From sequence record PZ445420.1: a DNA stretch of 58,073 nucleotides, one strand, 5' to 3'. Positions 3,242-54,921 of the stretch are shown in pieces. Every line of letters begins with the position of its first letter. The first letter of the stretch is position 1. The translations under genes were made by a program, and so were the position numbers. Origin of the DNA: a phage. Below the pieces are notes generated by a model. The model did no database searches. It worked only from the letters and a program-made list of their open reading frames with translations, and was not told the origin of the DNA.

Positions 3242-4147
3242 GTGGAACGGTCCACAATGGAGAATTTTATGAACAAATATCACATTCATCTAGCGGTAGC
3301 TTATTCCGCTGGCTTCTTCCAGTCCATGCCTCGTTTTGGTGCATTGGAACTTGAATATAATTCTGAAGACGAAATCCCGGAAAACGCGCGTGAATATTAT
3401 TCCCAAGAAGGCGATAAGTGGATCCTCACTGGCGTAAAAGGTGGCGGTAAGCAGAATATTGACAGGTTGCAATCCGCACTTGAAAAAGAACGTAACGATC
3501 ATAAAGCGGTCAAGAGTAAGCTAAGTAAGCTGAACGGACGTGATATTGACGAACTCTTGCAGCGCGACGCTGAATATGAAGAGCTTAAACTGCGTGCGGA
3601 TAAAGTTGATGATGAAAAGTTGGAGCAAATCATTAACGTACGAATCCGTAACAAGTTAACTCCGCTTGAGCGTGAACGTGACGAGCTGAAAAACAAACTT
3701 TCTACCTATGAGAAGCAAGTAGAAGAGCTGACCACAAAAGAGAAGAACCGCATCGTTAAGACCGCTCTTAGCAAGGCTGCAATGTCTGCTAAAGTGATCA
3801 CGGAAGCTATTGACGACGTGGAACTGATTGGTTCTCGTTTGTTTGAGCTCACCGAAGACGGTCAGGTTGTAACGCGCGACGGTGTGGGTGTAACTCCGGG
3901 CATTACTCCAGAAATGTGGTTACAGGACATTCAGGATAAGAAACCTCACTGGTTCCCTGGAAACGTCGGCGGTGGTGCTGGTGGCTCACGTACTCCTGGC
4001 GCTGCTGGTAAGAACCCGTGGAGTGCAGAAGGTTGGAACCTTACTGAGCAGGGTAAAATTCTTCGTGAAAATCCTGAAAAAGCAGGCCGTCTGGCAGCCA
4101 TGGTTGGCGTGGACTTGAAGCGTCCAGTACGTCCAGTTAAAAAATAA
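3242..4147 (+). CDS. head scaffolding protein (candidate); start may be 3257 or 3269 (GGAG 6 nt upstream of 3269)
   Basis: Highly charged, predicted helical/coiled-coil protein between portal and major capsid gene; Gly-rich C-terminus. Confidence 0.5.
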   Translation: MERSTMENFMNKYHIHLAVAYSAGFFQSMPRFGALELEYNSEDEIPENAREYYSQEGDKWILTGVKGGGKQNIDRLQSALEKERNDHKAVKSKLSKLNGRDIDELLQRDAEYEELKLRADKVDDEKLEQIINVRIRNKLTPLERERDELKNKLSTYEKQVEELTTKEKNRIVKTALSKAAMSAKVITEAIDDVELIGSRLFELTEDGQVVTRDGVGVTPGITPEMWLQDIQDKKPHWFPGNVGGGAGGSRTPGAAGKNPWSAEGWNLTEQGKILRENPEKAGRLAAMVGVDLKRPVRPVKK

Positions 4148-8394: not shown

Positions 8395-9573
8395 ATGGCT
8401 GAAGGTTCACGTTATAGTAGCTATTACATCAAAGAACAGACCTCCGGTGTCACTCCGTCTAGCGGAACTCTGAAGGTCTTTCGTGCTACTAAATCGGGTC
8501 TTGATATTAAAGTCGCTACTCTGCAATCTGAAGAAATTCGAGATGACGCGGAAGTGGCGGATTTCCGTCTTGGTGCTCGTCACGTAGAAGGTACAGCAAC
8601 GGGTGAACTGTCTTATGAGACATTTGATGACCTGTTGGGTGGTGCGTTACGTGGTACGTTTGCGGGTGAAGTGCTAACCGCAGGCATCGAGCGCCAATCC
8701 TTTACTTTTATCGACTATAACGCAGATATTACGGACTTCCCATATACCATCTATCGCGGTTGTGAAGTTAACAGTCTTGCAATTACTGTAAGTGCTGAAG
8801 CTATCACCGGCGTGGAATTCGGTATTGTTGGTCGCACAATGGAACAAGCTGCTACCCTGCCGTCTGGTCTAAGTAAAGGTACTCGTACGACTACACCACC
8901 TATGGATGGCTTCTCTGGTAAGCTGGCTATGGGCGATGTATCCGTTGATGTTATTACTGAGATGGCTATTAACCTTGAGAACGGCATCGAGCCTCGCTTT
9001 GTTGTTGGTTCCAAGTTCTCCATTAAGCCAAGCTCTAAACGCCGTCAGATTAGTGGTACACTGACCGCCTACTACGAAGATAACAAACTGCGTAGTAAGT
9101 TCCTGAACGAACAGGAAAGTGACCTGACTATTGACATCCTGGACGGAACTACTGGTGCCGGTTATCGCTTCAGTATGCCTCGTATCAAGATTACGGAAGC
9201 TCCGCGTCCGATCGATGGTGAAGGCGATATTATGCTGAACATGAGCTATACTGGTCTGTTGGATCAGGAAGAAGGTTACAGCATTCGCATTACTAAACTT
9301 CCTCCGATGTCTTTCACGACGGATCTTACCGCAAACAAGACTATCACTAAAGGGCAAACGCTGACCCTTTCTGTTGTGGTTAAAGGTGGTGCAGAACCTT
9401 ATACCTACGTGTGGAAGAAAGGTGGTGTCGTTATTGGAGGTGCTAATCAAGCGACATACACTAAATCTAACGCACAAGAGGTAGATGCTGGTCAGTATGT
9501 ATGTGAAGTAACAGATTCACATGGTCGTACTATACCGAGCACCGCCTGCTTGGTTGCTGTTAACGCTGAGTAA
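8395..9573 (+). CDS. major tail protein with C-terminal Ig-like domain
   Basis: 392-aa ORF upstream of chaperone/tape-measure genes; C-terminal segment (LTLSVVVKGGAEPYTYVWKKGG...GQYVCEVTD) looks like an Ig-like domain; followed by terminator. Confidence 0.6.
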   Translation: MAEGSRYSSYYIKEQTSGVTPSSGTLKVFRATKSGLDIKVATLQSEEIRDDAEVADFRLGARHVEGTATGELSYETFDDLLGGALRGTFAGEVLTAGIERQSFTFIDYNADITDFPYTIYRGCEVNSLAITVSAEAITGVEFGIVGRTMEQAATLPSGLSKGTRTTTPPMDGFSGKLAMGDVSVDVITEMAINLENGIEPRFVVGSKFSIKPSSKRRQISGTLTAYYEDNKLRSKFLNEQESDLTIDILDGTTGAGYRFSMPRIKITEAPRPIDGEGDIMLNMSYTGLLDQEEGYSIRITKLPPMSFTTDLTANKTITKGQTLTLSVVVKGGAEPYTYVWKKGGVVIGGANQATYTKSNAQEVDAGQYVCEVTDSHGRTIPSTACLVAVNAE

Positions 9574-27521: not shown

Positions 27522-28937
27522 TTACTGTTCATCCAGATAGGTAATTACCTCTGGCGCACCATTAATACTAAATGCAGTCCGGCGCATCATGCAAGGGCCA
27601 CAAGTACCGCAATGCAAATCCCCGTTACGGTAACAGCTCCAGGTGTGCTCCAACGGGGCCCCTAAACGCAGACCTGTAGCGACAATTTCGTGCTTCATTA
27701 AGTTACCTACTGGCATAAGCACTTCAACGCGCTTACCGTCGCCTACAGCGAACGGTAACACTTGATTAAAGCGATTAATGAACTCAGGCTCATTGTCGGG
27801 GTAGGCTCCAGCTTCTTCTAGGTTGTTACCAAGAACAATATAGTCGAAACCGTTAGCTTCTGCGTATGCAGTAGCAACAGAAAGCATCACAAGGTTACGA
27901 GCTGGAACCCATTCATGCGCGAACTCAGCGCCTTCTTCACCGCCAGCAATTGTAGCATCTTGATCAAATAATGGGCTATCTTTCTTATCGTAGATCGGAA
28001 TTGGAAATTCAATTAATGGAACCCCCATCACCTCCGCAATCTTACGAATAGCGTACAGCTCATTAGTTTCTGCACGACAACCATATTGGAAGTTAATCAG
28101 AGTAACATCTAGACCATTGGACTTACATATCTGAGCTGCTACTGTGCTGTCCATACCACCACTGGCGACAACTAACGCACGTTGAGTCTGCTTATTTGGA
28201 ATAAGATCAACTTCATTGCATACATCAGTCGATGTGACCACATTACACGAATAAGGCTTCAGCATCTGCTTAATAGCACGGGTTGGTAGCATGTCTTCCT
28301 GGCTGGCGAAATACATACCAGTATCAGTCTTACCAATCCAGATTGGACGGTAATTACATGCTGCAAACACATACCCAGGAAGTGAATCGTGCGTTGCAAG
28401 GATTGCGTAACTTCCTTTCAACTTGCGAATAACTTCATGAAATACGTTATAAAGGTAATCTGAATCAGACAGACACGTTTCATCCGCTGAAAGTGTGCAT
28501 TCCGCTAACTGTTCAACAATCGCAGCACTATCAATTTTAGTCTGTAGTGCATAGGTACGAAGGTCTTTATCGTTCGCAATAGTACCGTTATGAACAATAG
28601 TCCAACCATCCATATGATACGGTTGCTGGTCCCACTCGTTCTTGTCAACGACCCACTCTGTAGTCGGTTCAGCACGAGCGTTACCAATCATTGTGAAGCT
28701 ACCAATAGCTCCAGCATGAGATACAATGCACCCAACTTTGACAGGACGTTCCAGTGATGTTTCCTTACCGACACTAACAATACGTTGCGGGTGCATACTG
28801 TGGTCACCATGCGTAAAGCGTACACCAAGACCATCACGACCACGCTTGATACTAGCTTTAATAAGATCACCAACATCGTTACGGATAATTTCACGTTCAG
28901 GTTGGCCATTAGTAATAACACCAAAGATGGAGCACAT
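27522..28937 (-). CDS. queC: glutamine amidotransferase (class II) fused to QueC-like 7-cyano-7-deazaguanine synthase (Gat-QueC)
   Basis: N-terminus MCSIFGV (Ntn class-II GATase, as in AsnB); C-terminal PP-loop SGGMDS and Cys cluster C...CGTCGPC typical of QueC. Confidence 0.75.
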   Translation of the reverse strand: MCSIFGVITNGQPEREIIRNDVGDLIKASIKRGRDGLGVRFTHGDHSMHPQRIVSVGKETSLERPVKVGCIVSHAGAIGSFTMIGNARAEPTTEWVVDKNEWDQQPYHMDGWTIVHNGTIANDKDLRTYALQTKIDSAAIVEQLAECTLSADETCLSDSDYLYNVFHEVIRKLKGSYAILATHDSLPGYVFAACNYRPIWIGKTDTGMYFASQEDMLPTRAIKQMLKPYSCNVVTSTDVCNEVDLIPNKQTQRALVVASGGMDSTVAAQICKSNGLDVTLINFQYGCRAETNELYAIRKIAEVMGVPLIEFPIPIYDKKDSPLFDQDATIAGGEEGAEFAHEWVPARNLVMLSVATAYAEANGFDYIVLGNNLEEAGAYPDNEPEFINRFNQVLPFAVGDGKRVEVLMPVGNLMKHEIVATGLRLGAPLEHTWSCYRNGDLHCGTCGPCMMRRTAFSINGAPEVITYLDEQ

Positions 28938-49038: not shown

Positions 49039-49659
49039 TCACGCTCCGAACTGATCAATGTATTCAATGAGTTCTTGCAATTCTTGCTGTAATTGCACAT
49101 TACCACTATTATTCGTCTGAAGTCTAACGAGGCGTTCCTTGATATGTGTAATGTGGTTAGCACCCACTCGACGCTTCTGTACATCACACCAGTGAACAAC
49201 ACCATCTTCAATATATGCACGACGCGCTTTACCACGCGGGTATCGCAACGGCCGAACTTCACACTTATCGTCCACCCACTTAAAGCCCAGGATCATAACA
49301 GCGTTACCTTCCGTATCAGGACACACGTCAAAACAACTGTTGAACCCTTTACTGCGCATGTACTTGTCGAGCGGAATCACACAATCCACCTCTAACAACC
49401 AGTACCCGAAGTAAATGTCAACAGTGAACATCATCCCCAGCATCGGAGCCGACCAGCACATATACATCCGCCCGTCATCCAACTTCTTGACCGCATTCGG
49501 CCGCAACACGAGGCCAGCCGCCTTCCACGCTTTGACCACATTACTTAGGCTGTCGTTATGCTGTTCTAATATGGCTACCGCTTTGGCGTACATTTCTTCG
49601 TCATAATCGAACATTTCCTGTACGTGTGCGTGCGTTATTTCAATATTACGATTCCGCAT
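49039..49659 (-). CDS. hypothetical protein, first gene of leftward block after non-coding region
   Basis: 206-aa ORF. Confidence 0.4.
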   Translation of the reverse strand: MRNRNIEITHAHVQEMFDYDEEMYAKAVAILEQHNDSLSNVVKAWKAAGLVLRPNAVKKLDDGRMYMCWSAPMLGMMFTVDIYFGYWLLEVDCVIPLDKYMRSKGFNSCFDVCPDTEGNAVMILGFKWVDDKCEVRPLRYPRGKARRAYIEDGVVHWCDVQKRRVGANHITHIKERLVRLQTNNSGNVQLQQELQELIEYIDQFGA

Positions 49660-49827
49660 AACCTCACCCTCGATAATAATAAATCGACTGATTTTGAAAT
49701 TCAGTTGCCAAGTTTTAATTTATGCGAAGTTTTTGCTATTTGCAATTGTGACATTTTGCGGTGTTTGTATGTGCAATGTTTTTGCTTTTGCAAAAATTAC
49801 AGCAGTCTGAAGGTGAGAAATTGTACA

Positions 49828-49966
49828 TTTATAAAGATCGGTGAAAAAATGCACAATTTATAAAGGCCCCGTAATACATAAAACGGCGAAGCGAAGTGTA
49901 TGAAAAATAAGGGAAAATTTTGAGGGTTTGGGGGAACGTGTGAATTTATAAATTTTATAAAGGGGT
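49828..49966. repeat. four copies of TTTATAAA(G) in AT-rich non-coding region
   Basis: TTTATAAAG at 49828, 49857 and 49955 plus TTTATAAA at 49945; adjacent GGGGTC x2 and CA-rich tract. Confidence 0.6.
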
Positions 49967-50611
49967 CTCGTAGGGGTCGTCAGTAGACAACTCAAAAACA
50001 AAAAATCTTTATACAATTTATATAAATACACACATACACACATTTTTTACCTTATTTTTCATGCACTTACCTCCTTTCATTTCGTATATTAAGCGTTAAT
50101 ACATGAGCAATATAACATATATTTGTTGCGCAACGACTGTGTGTTTTCTAACCAATCGAAAGATTGCTTTATATACGTCCGCGCGTCTAACACAAAAGAA
50201 AAGTAGATTGCAAGCGATTTTTGCTGAGGTAACTCTCGAAGTGAAAGCGATTTGCGAGTTTGAAATTTTGTAGCCCGAAAACGATTCTATTTTATGGTAT
50301 AAATGTCGGATTTTTCGGTGAAAGGTGGCTTTTCGGTGAGGTTGGGTGGCTGGGATCGGGGTAACGGGTAGCCCATAAAGCGAAAATAGCCGCGAAAACG
50401 GGGCACGCAGCGCGATTAAACGGTTGGATCGGTGCAAGGGTGGCGGTGAGGGGCGAAAATGCCGCAAAATCGCGTACAGGGAAGCAGGGAGCGGATCGCT
50501 GTAAGGGCGTATAAGGCGACTGAATTGGAGTCAATGGTAATGTACGGAAGAGGGATTCAGGTTCTTAGAGCGCGAATGGTGGAGTTACGGGTGAGGAATA
50601 TGTGGTCAGCA

Positions 50612-50635
50612 GGGTGGGGCGGGAGGTGGTGCGGG
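50612..50635 (+). other. G-quadruplex-capable motif (GGG-T-GGGG-C-GGG-N9-GGG) in purine-rich non-coding tract
   Basis: Direct reading; the + strand between about 50280 and 50640 is strongly G/A-rich. Confidence 0.3.
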
Positions 50636-50648
50636 TACAAAAACGAAA

Positions 50649-50675
50649 GCGCCCCGTTGGACTTCAACAGGGCGC
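50649..50675 (-). terminator. rho-independent terminator downstream of gene 50699..50956
   Basis: GCGCCC/GGGCGC stem with 15-nt loop; on minus strand followed by TTTCGTTTTTG. Confidence 0.45.
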
Positions 50676-50698
50676 GGATTGTAAAATGGTTTTAGAAG

Positions 50699-50956
50699 TT
50701 ATTTACAAGTTAATAATACCGCCCAGGTATTATCTGGAAGCGTACCAATTCCGCGGATTTTCAACTGGAGCGACTGGTGCTGCATGTTGTAGTTGTCTAG
50801 TAACTCCTGGGCCGCGGCAGCGGCGTTTGCTTCACTGTTGAGAGCGTAGTCGTTACTCGTTACCGCGCACATACCGAGGCCAACTGCTTTGAAGCGCAAA
50901 CCTTTGGATTGAGTCGGTGCGAGTGCTTTGACATGGATAGCTTGCATATTATTCAT
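50699..50956 (-). CDS. hypothetical protein
   Basis: 85-aa ORF. Confidence 0.35.
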   Translation of the reverse strand: MNNMQAIHVKALAPTQSKGLRFKAVGLGMCAVTSNDYALNSEANAAAAAQELLDNYNMQHQSLQLKIRGIGTLPDNTWAVLLTCK

Positions 50957-50976
50957 CTCCGTTACAATTTGAAAGG

Positions 50977-51234
50977 TTAGCAGTTTTTTAACAGGTTGAT
51001 GAAGCCCACCAGCGTGGACGCTGTTGCAACAAGGCGGCCCATAGTGTGTAGTTCCGCGTGAACTTTACCGTCGTCAAATACAGTTAAATAAACGTTAAGA
51101 CCATTGCAACGGACGCGATATTTGCGCGAGTTATTATTGAAAGTTTCTAATTCCGCAGTGATAGTCGCAAGGTTGGCTATACGTTTTCCAATAATGCGGC
51201 GAGTGATAGTGGACTGGTTTAATACTGTAGACAT
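50977..51234 (-). CDS. hypothetical protein, RIIGKR-motif family (paralog of 52137..52442)
   Basis: 85 aa; shares S-x-S-x-IT-[RK]-RIIGKR segment. Confidence 0.4.
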   Translation of the reverse strand: MSTVLNQSTITRRIIGKRIANLATITAELETFNNNSRKYRVRCNGLNVYLTVFDDGKVHAELHTMGRLVATASTLVGFINLLKNC

Positions 51235-51256
51235 AATAATTTCCTCAGTTAACTAT

Positions 51257-51295
51257 GCGGATTGCATATTATTGCCCACTGTTACTATGGGCAAT
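51257..51295. promoter_or_regulatory. conserved motif GCGGATTGC plus palindrome ATTGCCCA-N9-TGGGCAAT upstream of minus-strand gene
   Basis: Same architecture recurs at 52086-52120. Confidence 0.4.
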
Positions 51296-51316
51296 GTATA
51301 TGTCACTCAGCGATAA

Positions 51317-51535
51317 TTACTCCGGTAAAATTACAGTGACGTTAATATTTGCAATGCGAGCGCACTCGCGGAAACCTTTTACATAAGCATCCATTTCGTC
51401 ATAGGATGCGAATGTCACGTCCGGGACTGGTCCGTTGTTAATATTCACGCAATATTCGTGTTCATCCAGGTCAACCCAGCAATTCAGAACGATAGTTTCC
51501 ATATTATTTGCCCTCCGTATAATACAGACCCGCAA
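51317..51535 (-). CDS. hypothetical protein
   Basis: 72-aa ORF. Confidence 0.35.
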   Translation of the reverse strand: MRVCIIRRANNMETIVLNCWVDLDEHEYCVNINNGPVPDVTFASYDEMDAYVKGFRECARIANINVTVILPE

Positions 51536-51580
51536 CTATTGGAGCTCCGAACACCAAGAAAGCTAATAAATAGAACATAA

Positions 51581-52060
51581 TTAGTTACCACCTTTATTGT
51601 TGAGCCCGTTGAATTTACGCCATGCGTAGAATTCAATCGTTGCATTATTAATATTCCAACCATTAGCTTTCGCAAGGTCACGGACGTTACCAATAGTTGG
51701 CACACTATTAGGCAACATATTATCCAGGGCATTCCAAACGTCTGCGCATTTACCTTTAATTGGGCGGCGGACCCCGTTGCGCGTTTCGCTGCGCGTTTTA
51801 CCTTTGACGGGAGCGACCGGAGCTGGTTGTGTGGTCACTTCCACGACAGTCGCTTTATCAGCTTCAACCAGATCGTTAGCTGCCTTATTAACTGCGCTTT
51901 CGCTGAACCAGTAGCGGCCACCGTCTTCCAGCGGCTCCTGGTGAATAAAGCTATTTGCTGTCGCTGTGTCTACATCCAGAACCTTTTTCAAGGCACGGCG
52001 AGCGTTAGACATATTGGTGAAAAAGCGAGCATCTTTTGCTACGCGAGTGATAGTAACCAT
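51581..52060 (-). CDS. hypothetical protein (start at second ATG; GGAGA 7 nt upstream)
   Basis: about 159 aa; ORF track gives 51581..52075. Confidence 0.4.
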   Translation of the reverse strand: MVTITRVAKDARFFTNMSNARRALKKVLDVDTATANSFIHQEPLEDGGRYWFSESAVNKAANDLVEADKATVVEVTTQPAPVAPVKGKTRSETRNGVRRPIKGKCADVWNALDNMLPNSVPTIGNVRDLAKANGWNINNATIEFYAWRKFNGLNNKGGN

Positions 52061-52085
52061 TGTGAATATCTCCATGTTGTTCTAG

Positions 52086-52120
52086 CGGATTGCTAGTGGG
52101 AGCCCACTGTGACAATGGGC
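52086..52120. promoter_or_regulatory. second copy of GCGGATTGC plus GCCCA-N9-TGGGC palindrome
   Basis: GCGGATTGC 52086-52094; GCCCACTGTGACAATGGGC 52102-52120; overlapping AGTGGG/CCCACT hairpin. Confidence 0.4.
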
Positions 52121-52136
52121 AACCATTAGCACGCTA

Positions 52137-52442
52137 TTATTGTTGAATAGCTTTAGCTATCATTGTAATGAAGCAGAACACAGACCAAAGGCTATTCGCT
52201 TGGCATACTGGGCGACCATACATTACGCTATAAGAGCTGACATTGCCGTCCTCGTTAATGCGAATATATAACGCGGTGCTGGAATATTTTTCGTTGCCCG
52301 GGAGCATTACCAGATACTCGTCGAAATCCCAATCCCCGTCAACTTTTTCCGCAGTAAGGCCCAGTTGGTGCAGGCGCTTGCCAATAATGCGCTTAGTAAT
52401 TTGAGATTGGGACATGGAACGCGGTAAGTAGATAATGGACAT
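52137..52442 (-). CDS. hypothetical protein, RIIGKR-motif family (paralog of 50977..51234)
   Basis: 101 aa from internal ATG (MSIIYLP) with GGAGA RBS; ORF track extends to 52559. Confidence 0.4.
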   Translation of the reverse strand: MSIIYLPRSMSQSQITKRIIGKRLHQLGLTAEKVDGDWDFDEYLVMLPGNEKYSSTALYIRINEDGNVSSYSVMYGRPVCQANSLWSVFCFITMIAKAIQQ

Positions 52443-52630
52443 AATGCAATCTCCCTTCGGGTGAGGCGGGCGCGGAACCCGTGTCCCGCTTAAAAACCCC
52501 CTTAACCCTACGCAGTTATAGTATGACAACAGGGTATCAGATGCAACTATTATCTGCATTATTTTAGAACTTTTTTAGTTGTGTTTCATAATAATAACAT
52601 CCGGGACTATACGGTAGATGGTGTGCCGGA

Positions 52631-52696
52631 AATACCAGGTAGCGCGAGCGTGCTGAAAATACCAGGTAACAGCACGCGCCGAACATACCAGGTAGC
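52631..52696. repeat. three direct repeats ATACCAGGTA(A/G)C spaced 26-28 bp
   Basis: Copies at about 52631, 52659, 52685 in non-coding region. Confidence 0.6.
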
Positions 52697-52825
52697 ACAT
52701 ACATAGACAGCACATAGTGGGCAGGTGGATAGTAACAGATGCAATTATACTGGACAGTACAGTATAGTCATGTAATAGATAGCACACTAATCAAATAAAA
52801 AATAATAACGCGTGTAACAATAAAC

Positions 52826-52900
52826 AACGTTATAGTAGAGCGCGCAACAGTCACATGACGTAACAATCACCTCACTGACGATCACGGGACGTTATAGTAA
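52826..52900. repeat. two direct repeats ACGTTATAGTA about 61 bp apart
   Basis: Direct reading of non-coding region. Confidence 0.45.
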
Positions 52901-53047
52901 CGCCGCGGGGCGGCTCTTAGATCTCTGCCAAGGATTCATCGTTTGTAGATTATCTCGTCACTAGACACTTTATATCCTCACCTCACCTGTCCTATATTGT
53001 TCGTATAAAGTTAATTCCGTATGTAAATACTCGAGAGGAGATCTGTT

Positions 53048-53335
53048 ATGTTCGTTCTGGCTTTCAGTAGTGCAATATGGCTAGGTATCAACTGGATCCT
53101 TGCAATTATATTAGGTCTTGTGATCTGGTATGTACCGTTCATGCGTTACGCTGTTATCATTTCGCTTGTATATTTAGTTGTTAAACATTTCTTCGTATGG
53201 TGTGTATGCAATCCACAAGCTGCAAACATCAAACGTAACAAAGCAAACTTCTTTAGTGTACTTATTTTAGGTTCACTAATTGTGTACGCATGGCTGCTCG
53301 GTGCGGAGAACTTAGGCTGGTTCACGTTGCCTTAA
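53048..53335 (+). CDS. small integral membrane protein (three predicted TM segments)
   Basis: 95 aa, very hydrophobic; GAGGAG RBS; first gene of rightward block. Confidence 0.45.
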   Translation: MFVLAFSSAIWLGINWILAIILGLVIWYVPFMRYAVIISLVYLVVKHFFVWCVCNPQAANIKRNKANFFSVLILGSLIVYAWLLGAENLGWFTLP

Positions 53336-53420
53336 TGTGGTCACTATTTGTTGCGGCCGGCTATGTTAATCAACTTGCGTATCCTGTTATAGTTATTCCG
53401 TTAACGTTAAAGGGGTCTAT

Positions 53421-53786
53421 ATGAACGAGAATATAGTTAAAGCCTGGTCTATGCTGAGGCCACAGTTGAAAGACGATCGCATCGCTTTTACTTTGTGCCC
53501 GAATAATGATTATCGCCGACAGCTCGAAGAAGTGTTGCGCGAAGATCCTGAATTCGTTCGCTGTGTGCAACTGTCGCGCGAGTCATCTGTGGTGCAGTTT
53601 GATCGTTTCCATCTTCGTTTGGTTGCTCATCGCAGAGACTCGTATGAAGACACTGTTATTCGTACGAGCGGCTTTCATTGTGATATTGCCATTCTTGACT
53701 GCGAATTAAGTATTGAGCAGAAACAGGACTTATATAATCTCGCTCGTGAACGTCATGGTGAACTATTAATTGTGGAAGTGCAATAA
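53421..53786 (+). CDS. hypothetical protein
   Basis: 121-aa ORF. Confidence 0.4.
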   Translation: MNENIVKAWSMLRPQLKDDRIAFTLCPNNDYRRQLEEVLREDPEFVRCVQLSRESSVVQFDRFHLRLVAHRRDSYEDTVIRTSGFHCDIAILDCELSIEQKQDLYNLARERHGELLIVEVQ

Positions 53787-54567: not shown

Positions 54568-54921
54568 ATGGGCTTGCAACGTTTTGACAATGCAGAACTC
54601 GCGTGTGAATTTGCAAAGCGCAAGTTTGCTAAAACAGGTACGCCGCGATGCGTACACGCGGCTATTGGGCAAAATGGGGCAAAGTATTGGTACGTTGGTA
54701 CAGTAGCTCAGATCAAGCGAAGATTCGCGACTACGCCCGAAATGCGCCGGCTTGGGTCCCCTACACTTGTGCGAAACAGGCAATTGGATAAAGAGGAAAT
54801 TTATCAATTTCTTAGGAATTACACTGGTAAAGAGAATAGATTTCAGGTTGCAGCGAAAGAGTTTAATATCGGTCTTTCCACTGCTTATAAAATTTATCAC
54901 ATATATGGGCGTTTAATATGA
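54568..54921 (+). CDS. hypothetical protein
   Basis: 117-aa ORF; overlaps next gene. Confidence 0.4.
   Translation: MGLQRFDNAELACEFAKRKFAKTGTPRCVHAAIGQNGAKYWYVGTVAQIKRRFATTPEMRRLGSPTLVRNRQLDKEEIYQFLRNYTGKENRFQVAAKEFNIGLSTAYKIYHIYGRLI

Follow-up and report, generated by a model that had tools for sequence, protein, structure and literature searches.

We analyzed a non-coding interval of 605 nt at positions 52443-53047 of a 58,073-nt phage DNA (sequence record PZ445420.1; "the window" below means this whole stretch). The interval holds an array of three direct repeats, and comparison with relatives revealed that this array is a separate non-coding cassette, which some members of two genera have and others lack. 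The same comparison places a physical end of the virion DNA inside the interval. We give even odds to the reading that the interval, which belongs to a virulent 9g-like siphovirus (Nonagvirus), serves as its early/late switch region and combines an operator-like array with the DNA end. Among the parts of this reading, the comparison establishes the orthology with a published region of phage 9g, the position of the DNA end in three data sets, the reality, uniqueness and genus-wide conservation of the repeats, their homology to repeats in some Seuratviruses, and their natural loss or replacement in viable relatives.

The control region and its triple repeat array

The window represents a Nonagvirus, a 9g-like E. 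coli phage in the phage 9g group of Queuovirinae. Positions 52300-53200 are 94-97% identical to HdSG1, JenP2, JenK1, SE1 and 9g, and the 605-nt gap on its own is 92-98% identical among Nonagvirus records, a conservation equal to or greater than that of the coding flanks. Bounded by a leftward gene (up to 52442) and a rightward gene (from 53048), the interval 52443-53047 has no convincing open reading frame (ORF). The initial annotation had described a ~600-bp non-coding, repeat-rich control interval that splits leftward from rightward gene blocks, and our results agree with that description, the leftward block being early and the rightward one devoted to lysis and morphogenesis. The locus is the ortholog of the '603-bp intergenic region' between the early and late blocks of phage 9g, in which two promoters were predicted by BPROM (Kulikov et al. 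2014, Viruses 6:5077, PMC4276943); identity is 96% over the 605 nt, and the flanking genes and predicted promoters are the same.

The region, its predicted promoters and its DNA end have already been published for phage 9g. New here are the repeat families, the extent of the direct terminal repeat (DTR), derived from HdSG1 and HdK1, and the losses seen in relatives. The word 'repeats' does not occur in the 9g paper (Kulikov 2014, PMC4276943), and a full-text literature search with ATACCAGGTA returned nothing relevant. Queuovirinae (9g, CAjan and their relatives) have mainly been investigated for their deazaguanine DNA modifications, and the literature that we searched held no experimental work on their transcription programme or packaging. 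Our results overturn no current ideas.

The array (52622-52697, + strand) consists of three 23-nt units at 52622-52644, 52649-52671 and 52675-52697. Within these, exact + strand copies of ATACCAGGTA(A/G)C begin at 52632, 52659 and 52685, with steps of 27 and 26 nt from start to start, in agreement with the three repeats at 26-28 bp spacing reported initially. The 58-kb window holds no further exact copy, and when the 605-nt region was shuffled 2000 times with its dinucleotides preserved, no shuffle contained any 10-mer three times. A bipartite consensus of about 18-23 nt, GYGCYGRA-N3-ACCAGG, is common to all units and found nowhere else in the window; the only palindromic part of this asymmetric motif is a 9-bp core, TACCnGGTA. 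When the isolate alignment was combined with three metagenome contigs (14 sequences), variable columns numbered 2 of 30 in the cores versus 13 of 48 in the spacers (Fisher p=0.037). The sites are therefore more constrained than the DNA between them and, as described below, the units are conserved across two genera, which is the behavior looked for in an operator array.

Repeat detection and comparison with related phages, both proposed at the outset, agree that the three units are real, unique in the window and conserved genus-wide except in JenP1. Among the 13 isolates aligned, 12 keep the cores while the spacers change. In JenP1, positions 52579-52717, which we define as an exchangeable cassette containing the array, have been swapped for ~650 unrelated nt with a 102-aa leftward ORF, and ATACCAGGTA is not found anywhere in the JenP1 genome. 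Its terminase is nevertheless close to that of the window (TerL 99%, TerS ~95% identity). The JenP1 insert closes with a 10-bp hairpin that is perfectly paired (TGTTGGATGC...GCATCCAACA), after which the + strand has a run of T (L014 4093-4134). Situated between the insert and the first leftward gene, this structure resembles an intrinsic terminator that would act on rightward transcription.

Unexpectedly, homologous arrays were also observed outside the genus. The Seuratviruses Dru_SM1 and CAjan contain four units, GTGCCGGA-N3-ACCAGG(T/G)G, at the corresponding place and spaced by 27, 36-37 and 35 bp, and one of these units, GCGTGTGCCGGAAATACCAGGTGCGCGCGAGC, is almost identical to unit 1 of the window (GGTGTGCCGGAAATACCAGGTAGCGCGAGC). 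The remainder of the interval has no BLAST match (E <= 0.001) in Seuratviruses. The arrays of CAjan and Dru_SM1 resemble that of the window in their homologous units, their orientation and their place between leftward early genes and a TAGACA-type rightward promoter candidate; they differ in having four units and a core that ends in ACCAGG(T/G)G, and in being variably present within the genus. Thus, Seurat and most other Seuratviruses lack the array, ECP2304 has one degenerate unit remaining, and Skure shows a clean ~135-nt deletion of the array with conserved flanks. Klebsiella phage K9PH25C2 and Ec1-ASingh, which represent the sister genus, retain several of the interval's blocks but not the ATACCAGGTA repeats; at the equivalent relative place, they have a different triple repeat, CCT(T)ACAGCG x3.

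The array is dispensable, since it has been naturally lost or replaced in the viable relatives Skure and JenP1. Because it is lost while terminase or replication genes are retained, its use as origin iterons or as an essential terminase site is disfavored. The natural deletion (Skure) and replacement (JenP1) variants provide ready-made controls, and an optional regulatory cassette can now be separated from the conserved motifs near the DNA end.

Other origins of the repeats were considered and rejected. A 41-aa ORF (52581-52706, annotated in SP8) is open in 14 sequences, but it has mostly nonsynonymous changes, the third repeat is out of frame, and its GTG start lacks a ribosome-binding site; given these changes and spacings that are mostly not multiples of 3, we conclude that the repeats are non-coding. 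A connection with Dcm/EcoRII was dropped (CCWGG is not depleted in the genome, with 113 observed vs 73 expected), as was the idea that the repeats protect the DNA end in the manner of Chi (the cores agree with Chi at only 5/8 positions). The window has three true Chi sites, none of them in the array or the end block. No match to the array was present in 5,426 E. coli genomes, so a host operator was rejected. Pattern scans of IMG/VR for the array yielded Nonagvirus contigs only, plus coincidental coding repeats in unrelated large viruses.

Two further elements accompany the array. Copies of AGATGCAAYTAT at 52539 and 52737 flank the triple repeat. The best-conserved element of the left half is GTATCAGATGCAACTATTATCT (52534-52555, + strand), which is identical at 20 of 22 positions in the sister genus and has a second, partial copy at 52732-52748.

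The DNA end, the terminal repeat and packaging candidates

HdSG1 and HdK1 have exact terminal duplications of 3363 bp and 3367 bp, respectively, in records that were linearized at sites where most reads end abruptly (Korf et al. 2019). Both right ends read ...ACGTTATAGTAACGCCGCGGGGCGGCTC/TTAGATCT, with the slash marking the cut, and map to 52916/52917 of the window, where the sequence is ...GGCGGCTC/TTAGATCT... In phage 9g, 91 reads of a single orientation start at a hot spot at record position 28,243, which was taken as the physical virion end (PMC4276943). That position corresponds to 52916 of the window, the base shared with the right ends of HdSG1 and HdK1. Three independent data sets (9g, HdSG1 and HdK1) thus place the physical DNA end, by homology, at 52916/52917. 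The evidence consists of identical sequence at both ends of virion-derived assemblies together with a pile-up of reads, carried over to the window through its relatives. The 9g region therefore shares its physical end with the window; the 9g paper differs in that its terminal repeat was deduced and left unsized.

The left end maps to 49953/49954 from HdSG1 and 3 nt further right from HdK1, both within a ~1-kb non-coding stretch. Mapping these terminal duplications onto the window would give a DTR at 49954-52916 that is present as a single copy, and we therefore take the window to be a collapsed assembly. The predicted DTR is ~3 kb and would include the greater part of the control region together with the first five leftward early genes, all of them small, with the rightward genes starting outside it. 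In this way, a DNA end is pinned to one base inside an early/late control region, and the first early genes are put in two copies.

Terminal repeats were also seen elsewhere. ECP2304 (OR880647) has an exact 3695-bp terminal duplication, Hafnia phage yong3 also has two matching places, and long DTRs seem to be general in the subfamily; the Iggy record begins in its divergent region without a duplicated end. In 9g, read coverage of the early half of the genome was reported to be ~1.5-fold higher, and it changes sharply at 28,243 (Kulikov et al., PMC4276943). A 3-kb DTR leaves this 1.5-fold excess unexplained. The stretch around the left boundary (49660-50700, ~1 kb) has no convincing ORF. Its left part is AT-rich, with ATTTATAAAG at ~49828 and ~49859, and TTTATAAAG starts at the cut itself (49954). 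Positions 50300-50640 are strongly G-rich on the + strand (GC skew +0.22) and hence C-rich in the leftward transcript, and a strong intrinsic terminator (50675-50649, - strand) lies just upstream of them. A Rho-utilization tract, or a control element of another kind, could be located here, separating the genes of the DTR from the rest of the early genes. In Seurat, a comparable non-coding gap spans 630 nt (L043 4501-5131).

A block that spans the DNA end, 52845-52937, is nearly invariant in the 13-genome alignment, JenP1 and HdK1 included, and is a candidate terminase cutting/recognition region. Two of its sub-blocks, GGTCACA...ATCACCTCACyGAyGATCA and TAACGCCGC...CTC, are retained in the sister genus. 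The 9-mer TCACCTCAC has two exact copies in the window, both on the + strand, at 52867-52875 (41-49 nt left of the DNA end) and 52978-52986 (62-70 nt right of it), and the sister genus keeps this pair as well. Finally, the 13-mer TCGTCA(G/C)TAGACA (TCGTCASTAGACA) occurs twice in the window, again on the + strand: as TCGTCAGTAGACA at 49977-49989, 24 nt right of the left DTR cut (49953/49954), and as TCGTCACTAGACA at 52955-52967, 39 nt right of the right cut. Nearly all nonagviruses conserve it at both positions, and it also occurs in the sister genus. In a gapless 13-mer test, a 12/13 match between the two 200-nt boundary windows has a chance of ~0.03, and gapped local alignment of the two DTR edges gave a score no higher than that of shuffles.

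Both 52845-52937 and TCGTCASTAGACA adjoin the mapped cut and are conserved among phages that share the terminase. The ATACCAGGTA array is not so conserved, since JenP1 is without it. As judged from this pattern, 52845-52937, the two copies of TCACCTCAC and TCGTCASTAGACA are credible candidates for packaging signals, ahead of the repeats that had been flagged. The suggestion that the interval holds packaging sites is in part correct, in that the physical genome end at 52916/52917 falls within it, but the JenP1 genome makes the flagged ATACCAGGTA repeats unlikely terminase sites.

The position of the 13-mer to the right of the left cut as well suggests that the terminase may be positioned by a motif just right of each cut. 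If the suggestion is true, TCGTCA(G/C)TAGACA at both DTR edges would explain how the terminase of a long-DTR siphovirus chooses its two cut sites. A wider proposal joins two linked possibilities, namely that the array is an exchangeable non-coding protein-binding cassette of two genera and that the 13-mer defines the terminase cut; that both hold together seems to us rather doubtful. In that proposal, the protein binding the cassette could be a host protein or a conserved early phage protein, and the cassette might be used as an optional early/late throttle or as a decoy for a host factor.

Just outside the right DTR edge, the first rightward gene (53048-53335, + strand) encodes a 95-aa protein that appears hydrophobic by eye. 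It is absent from HdK1, ESCO3, BRET, PD328 and JenP1, with an HNH endonuclease gene in its stead in HdK1, and homology breaks at ~52937 in HdK1 and at ~53037 in the other four. From these breaks and gene absences, we conclude that DNA just outside the DTR edge is a hot spot of gene exchange.

Proposed regulation and alternative readings

In the switch-region reading that we favor, the three units, 26-27 bp apart, would be tandem candidate sites for one sequence-specific DNA-binding protein, encoded by either the phage or the host. The array would have a leftward early promoter candidate, ATGAAA-17-TAAAAT, on one side and a rightward candidate, TAGACA-18-GATAGT, on the other, and might also lie in the leader of a second leftward promoter; its occupancy would tune or switch transcription of both gene blocks. 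It would be an accessory, exchangeable cassette and not a core element of replication or packaging. Packaging would instead involve the right-hand third of the interval, that is, 52845-52937 (with copy 2 of ACGTTATAGTA, described below, and TCACCTCAC) together with TCGTCACTAGACA at +39. Of the three functions offered initially for the repeats (iterons, operators or packaging-recognition sites), an operator-like accessory array is the best, and iterons and terminase sites are unlikely.

Four promoter-like sites, all found as consensus matches, flank the three units. The leftward sigma-70-like candidate ATGAAA-17-TAAAAT (52561-52589, - strand) lies left of the array, and the 10-mer TATTTTAGAA recurs unchanged at the equivalent place in CAjan. 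Directly right of the array is the rightward candidate TAGACA-18-GATAGT (52704-52733, + strand); Seuratviruses have TAGACA-17-TACTAT right of the array or of the deletion point, before the first rightward gene. A second leftward candidate, ATGACT-16-TATAAT (52744-52771, - strand), matches 10 of 12 consensus positions and would read through the array. The '-' promoter predicted by BPROM in 9g maps to ~52760-52794 of the window, so that it shares a ~50-bp neighborhood with this candidate and has different hexamers. The second rightward candidate, TTTAGA-18-CATAAT (52563-52592, + strand), matches the BPROM '+' promoter of the 9g record. In that record (KJ419279, L001), the two predicted promoters are at 3264-3295 (+) and 3461-3495 (-) and face each other, with the triple repeat between them. 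The 9g paper calls them divergent, whereas the annotated coordinates make them convergent-facing.

Two proteins encoded just downstream of the control region give weak hints of a regulatory role. The 117-aa protein (54568-54921, + strand) has a C-terminal helix-turn-helix with a weak match to HTH_7 (E=0.086), and its homologue in K9PH25C2 is annotated as a 'late transcriptional activator'. The 121-aa protein (53421-53786, + strand) has faint similarity to sigma factors (E=0.018) and is noted as a 'potential sigma factor' in the 9g record. As binders of the array, the genes absent from JenP1 were rejected (no DNA-binding signature, wrong distribution), as was the phrog_3199 protein (wrong distribution).

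Several points weigh against the switch-region reading. The contrast between cores and spacers is modest (p=0.037), and the sequences compared are closely related. With a spacing of 26-27 bp, successive sites alternate between the two faces of the helix, an arrangement that is uncommon among cooperative operators. All of the promoters are consensus matches, and since the two annotated in the 9g record face each other, the array may sit between back-to-back promoters or within transcripts that overlap. Searches of all neighboring genes against Pfam, NCBIfam, PHROGs and PDB sequences gave nothing usable; a presence/absence matrix of 13 genomes contained no local gene that is found in all array-bearing genomes yet absent from JenP1; and two further candidates for the binding protein failed the profile test. 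With respect to the DNA end, the window's own ends are assigned by homology to relatives, the 13-mer common to both DTR edges has a p of only ~0.03 when taken alone, and the deposited 3695-bp DTR of the Seuratvirus ECP2304 ends ~900 bp to the right of the control region. Given this last observation, the coincidence of DNA end and control region is a Nonagvirus feature and not a rule of the subfamily.

A second repeat family required separate consideration. The initial annotation had listed two ACGTTATAGTA repeats about 61 bp apart, and two exact copies are present on the + strand, at 52827-52837 and 52889-52899 (62 nt apart), with a third exact copy in coding sequence at 8409. As a pair, however, they are statistically weak: 95 of 2000 shuffles produced an exact direct repeat of 11 nt or more (p ~0.05), and we therefore consider the pair alone to be marginal. 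The first copy varies, being ACGTTACAGTA or ACGTTACAATA in 6 of 13 genomes. The second is invariant in the 13 genomes; it is part of a palindrome of 13 bp, CGTTATAGTAACG, and its last base is 17 nt from the DNA end. Three copies of the 9-mer GTTATAGTA are present in the region, at 52515, 52829 and 52891 (any 9-mer was seen three times in 2 of 2000 shuffles), and the leftmost copy (52515-52523, + strand) is GTTATAATA in five relatives. Neither ACGTTATAGTA copy is kept in the sister genus, which has other sequences at those places. As a general promoter motif, GTTAYARTA was rejected; its excess (10 observed vs 2.6 expected) is accounted for by the three local copies, and the others are mostly intragenic.

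It is conceivable, although unlikely, that this GTTATAGTA/ACGTTATAGTA family represents the -10 elements (TATAGT, with G at -14) of rightward promoters that have no -35, so that the copies would be neither protein operators nor packaging sites. Such promoters might depend on a phage factor, for which the sigma-like 121-aa protein and the helix-turn-helix 117-aa protein would be at hand, given the similarities and the K9PH25C2 annotation described above. All three copies are on the + strand, and the natural variants TATAAT, TACAGT and TACAAT change positions 3 and 5 of the hexamer and keep T1, A2 and T6, as a -10 element would. But an acceptable -35 at 15-19 nt is absent for every copy, the other GTTAYARTA copies in the genome are mostly intragenic, the motif is lost in the sister genus, and copy 2 lies within the invariant end block, where a packaging role would account for it equally well.

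Less probable again is that the triple array has no function. It would then be what slippage or recombination left behind, or a selfish non-coding cassette still present owing to the close relationship of the genomes. The array is dispensable in nature, neither family searches nor presence/absence profiling found a cognate protein, and nonagviruses are only 2-8% diverged here, which makes conservation weak evidence. Against this stand the homologous units in two genera whose intervals otherwise have no BLAST match to each other at E <= 0.001, the lower variability of the cores relative to the spacers, and a bipartite consensus common to all units and present nowhere else in the genome.

We consider it improbable that the array acts as RNA, that is, as protein-binding, processing or antitermination signals in the leader of an early leftward transcript from ATGACT-16-TATAAT. 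The 10/12 sigma-70 match at 52771-52744 would put the array at about +40 to +115 of this transcript, and an 8-bp inverted repeat, GCGTGCTG/CAGCACGC, brackets the middle unit. However, this stem is broken without compensation in at least six relatives (GCGTGTCG with an unchanged partner), 49500-53400 has no Rfam match, and in Seuratviruses the leftward promoter candidate is located between the gene and the array, which places the array outside that transcript.

An origin of replication, with the repeats as iterons for a phage initiator and the flanking AT-rich stretches as an unwinding element, is very unlikely. AT-rich DNA is indeed found around the three direct repeats (52563-52598 and 52787-52808), and the region is at the switch of gene orientation, with the minimum of cumulative GC skew ~2.5 kb to the left, near 50000. 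The skew, however, tracks gene orientation, and its sign changes near 50000 and not at the array. Furthermore, the array is lost in JenP1, Skure and most Seuratviruses, the primase-helicase and polymerase of JenP1 are not among the genes flagged as absent or diverged, and the neighboring proteins match no replication initiator family. The spacing of 27 and 26 bp, ~2.5 turns, is out of helical phase, where iterons would be expected at ~11 or 22 bp. The weakest reading, to which we give almost no credence, makes the array the TerS recognition site that directs the cut at 52916 from 220-285 bp away within the terminal repeat; JenP1 (TerL 99%, TerS ~95%, end-proximal block kept) has no repeat genome-wide, the array is missing from most Seuratviruses and cleanly deleted in Skure, and the sister genus retains the end block and not the repeats.

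The early genes of the DTR were also inspected. Two of them, 52137-52442 (-) and 50977-51234 (-), are paralogues that belong to phrog_13865 and share an N-terminal motif, QSxITxRIIGKR. The 85-aa paralogue is missing from 9g, SE1, SP8 and JenP1 and the 101-aa paralogue from FritzHoffmann; at least one of the two is kept in every genome examined. A third gene, 51581-52075 (-), encodes a 164-aa protein whose C-terminal ~70 aa are conserved not only in Queuovirinae but also outside them, in 116 phage records, among them phages of Pseudomonas, Vibrio and Sphingomonas. In all six contexts viewed (K9PH25C2, PSTCR4, Seurat, Dru_SM1, CAjan and Skure), this gene is a few genes from the early/late divergent region. 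The protein is called a 'transcriptional activator' in one record and has no relative in Pfam or PDB. In Pantoea phage Vid5 (L042, NC_042120), its tblastn match at 3429-3998 is on the strand opposite to the annotated CDS Vid5_ORF80. The gene block around 3429-3998 is likewise annotated on that opposite strand, and the Vid5 record may thus contain a strand mis-annotation.

Comparison with known systems

Repeats that bind the small terminase near the cut are known from the three R sites (R1-R3) of lambda cosB and from the pac boxes of SPP1. The control region resembles these systems in having short repeated sites within a few hundred bp of a terminase cut. In contrast, the ATACCAGGTA array is not conserved among phages with a near-identical terminase, and the phage studied here uses long direct terminal repeats rather than cos or headful pac.

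Phage T5 has a long DTR of ~10 kb, a first-step-transfer region with early genes inside. Like T5, the window has a multi-kb DTR with small early genes, repeat-rich non-coding DNA and candidate promoters that could fire first. It differs from T5 in the size of the DTR (~3 kb vs 10 kb) and in that the early/late control region contains the DTR edge; we saw no homologues of the T5 pre-early genes, and transfer of the DNA in two steps is not known from this phage.

Parallels to the array are also found in switch regions. In the lambda operator region, OR1-OR3 lie between the back-to-back promoters PR and PRM, and P2 and 186 have switches with face-to-face promoters. Here, too, three similar sites ~25 bp apart occupy a short interval between opposed transcription units that divide two gene programmes. 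Unlike lambda-type operators, the array units are direct repeats of an asymmetric motif, the array is dispensable, and its sites and promoters are predicted; family searches of the neighbors found no CI/Cro-like gene adjoining it. The authors of the 9g study remarked on the temperate-like layout of that phage and detected no integrase (Kulikov 2014, PMC4276943). The array is best filed as a further example of a familiar kind, an array of operator-like sites in the early/late switch region of a phage, and its distinguishing property is that it is an optional cassette common to two genera.

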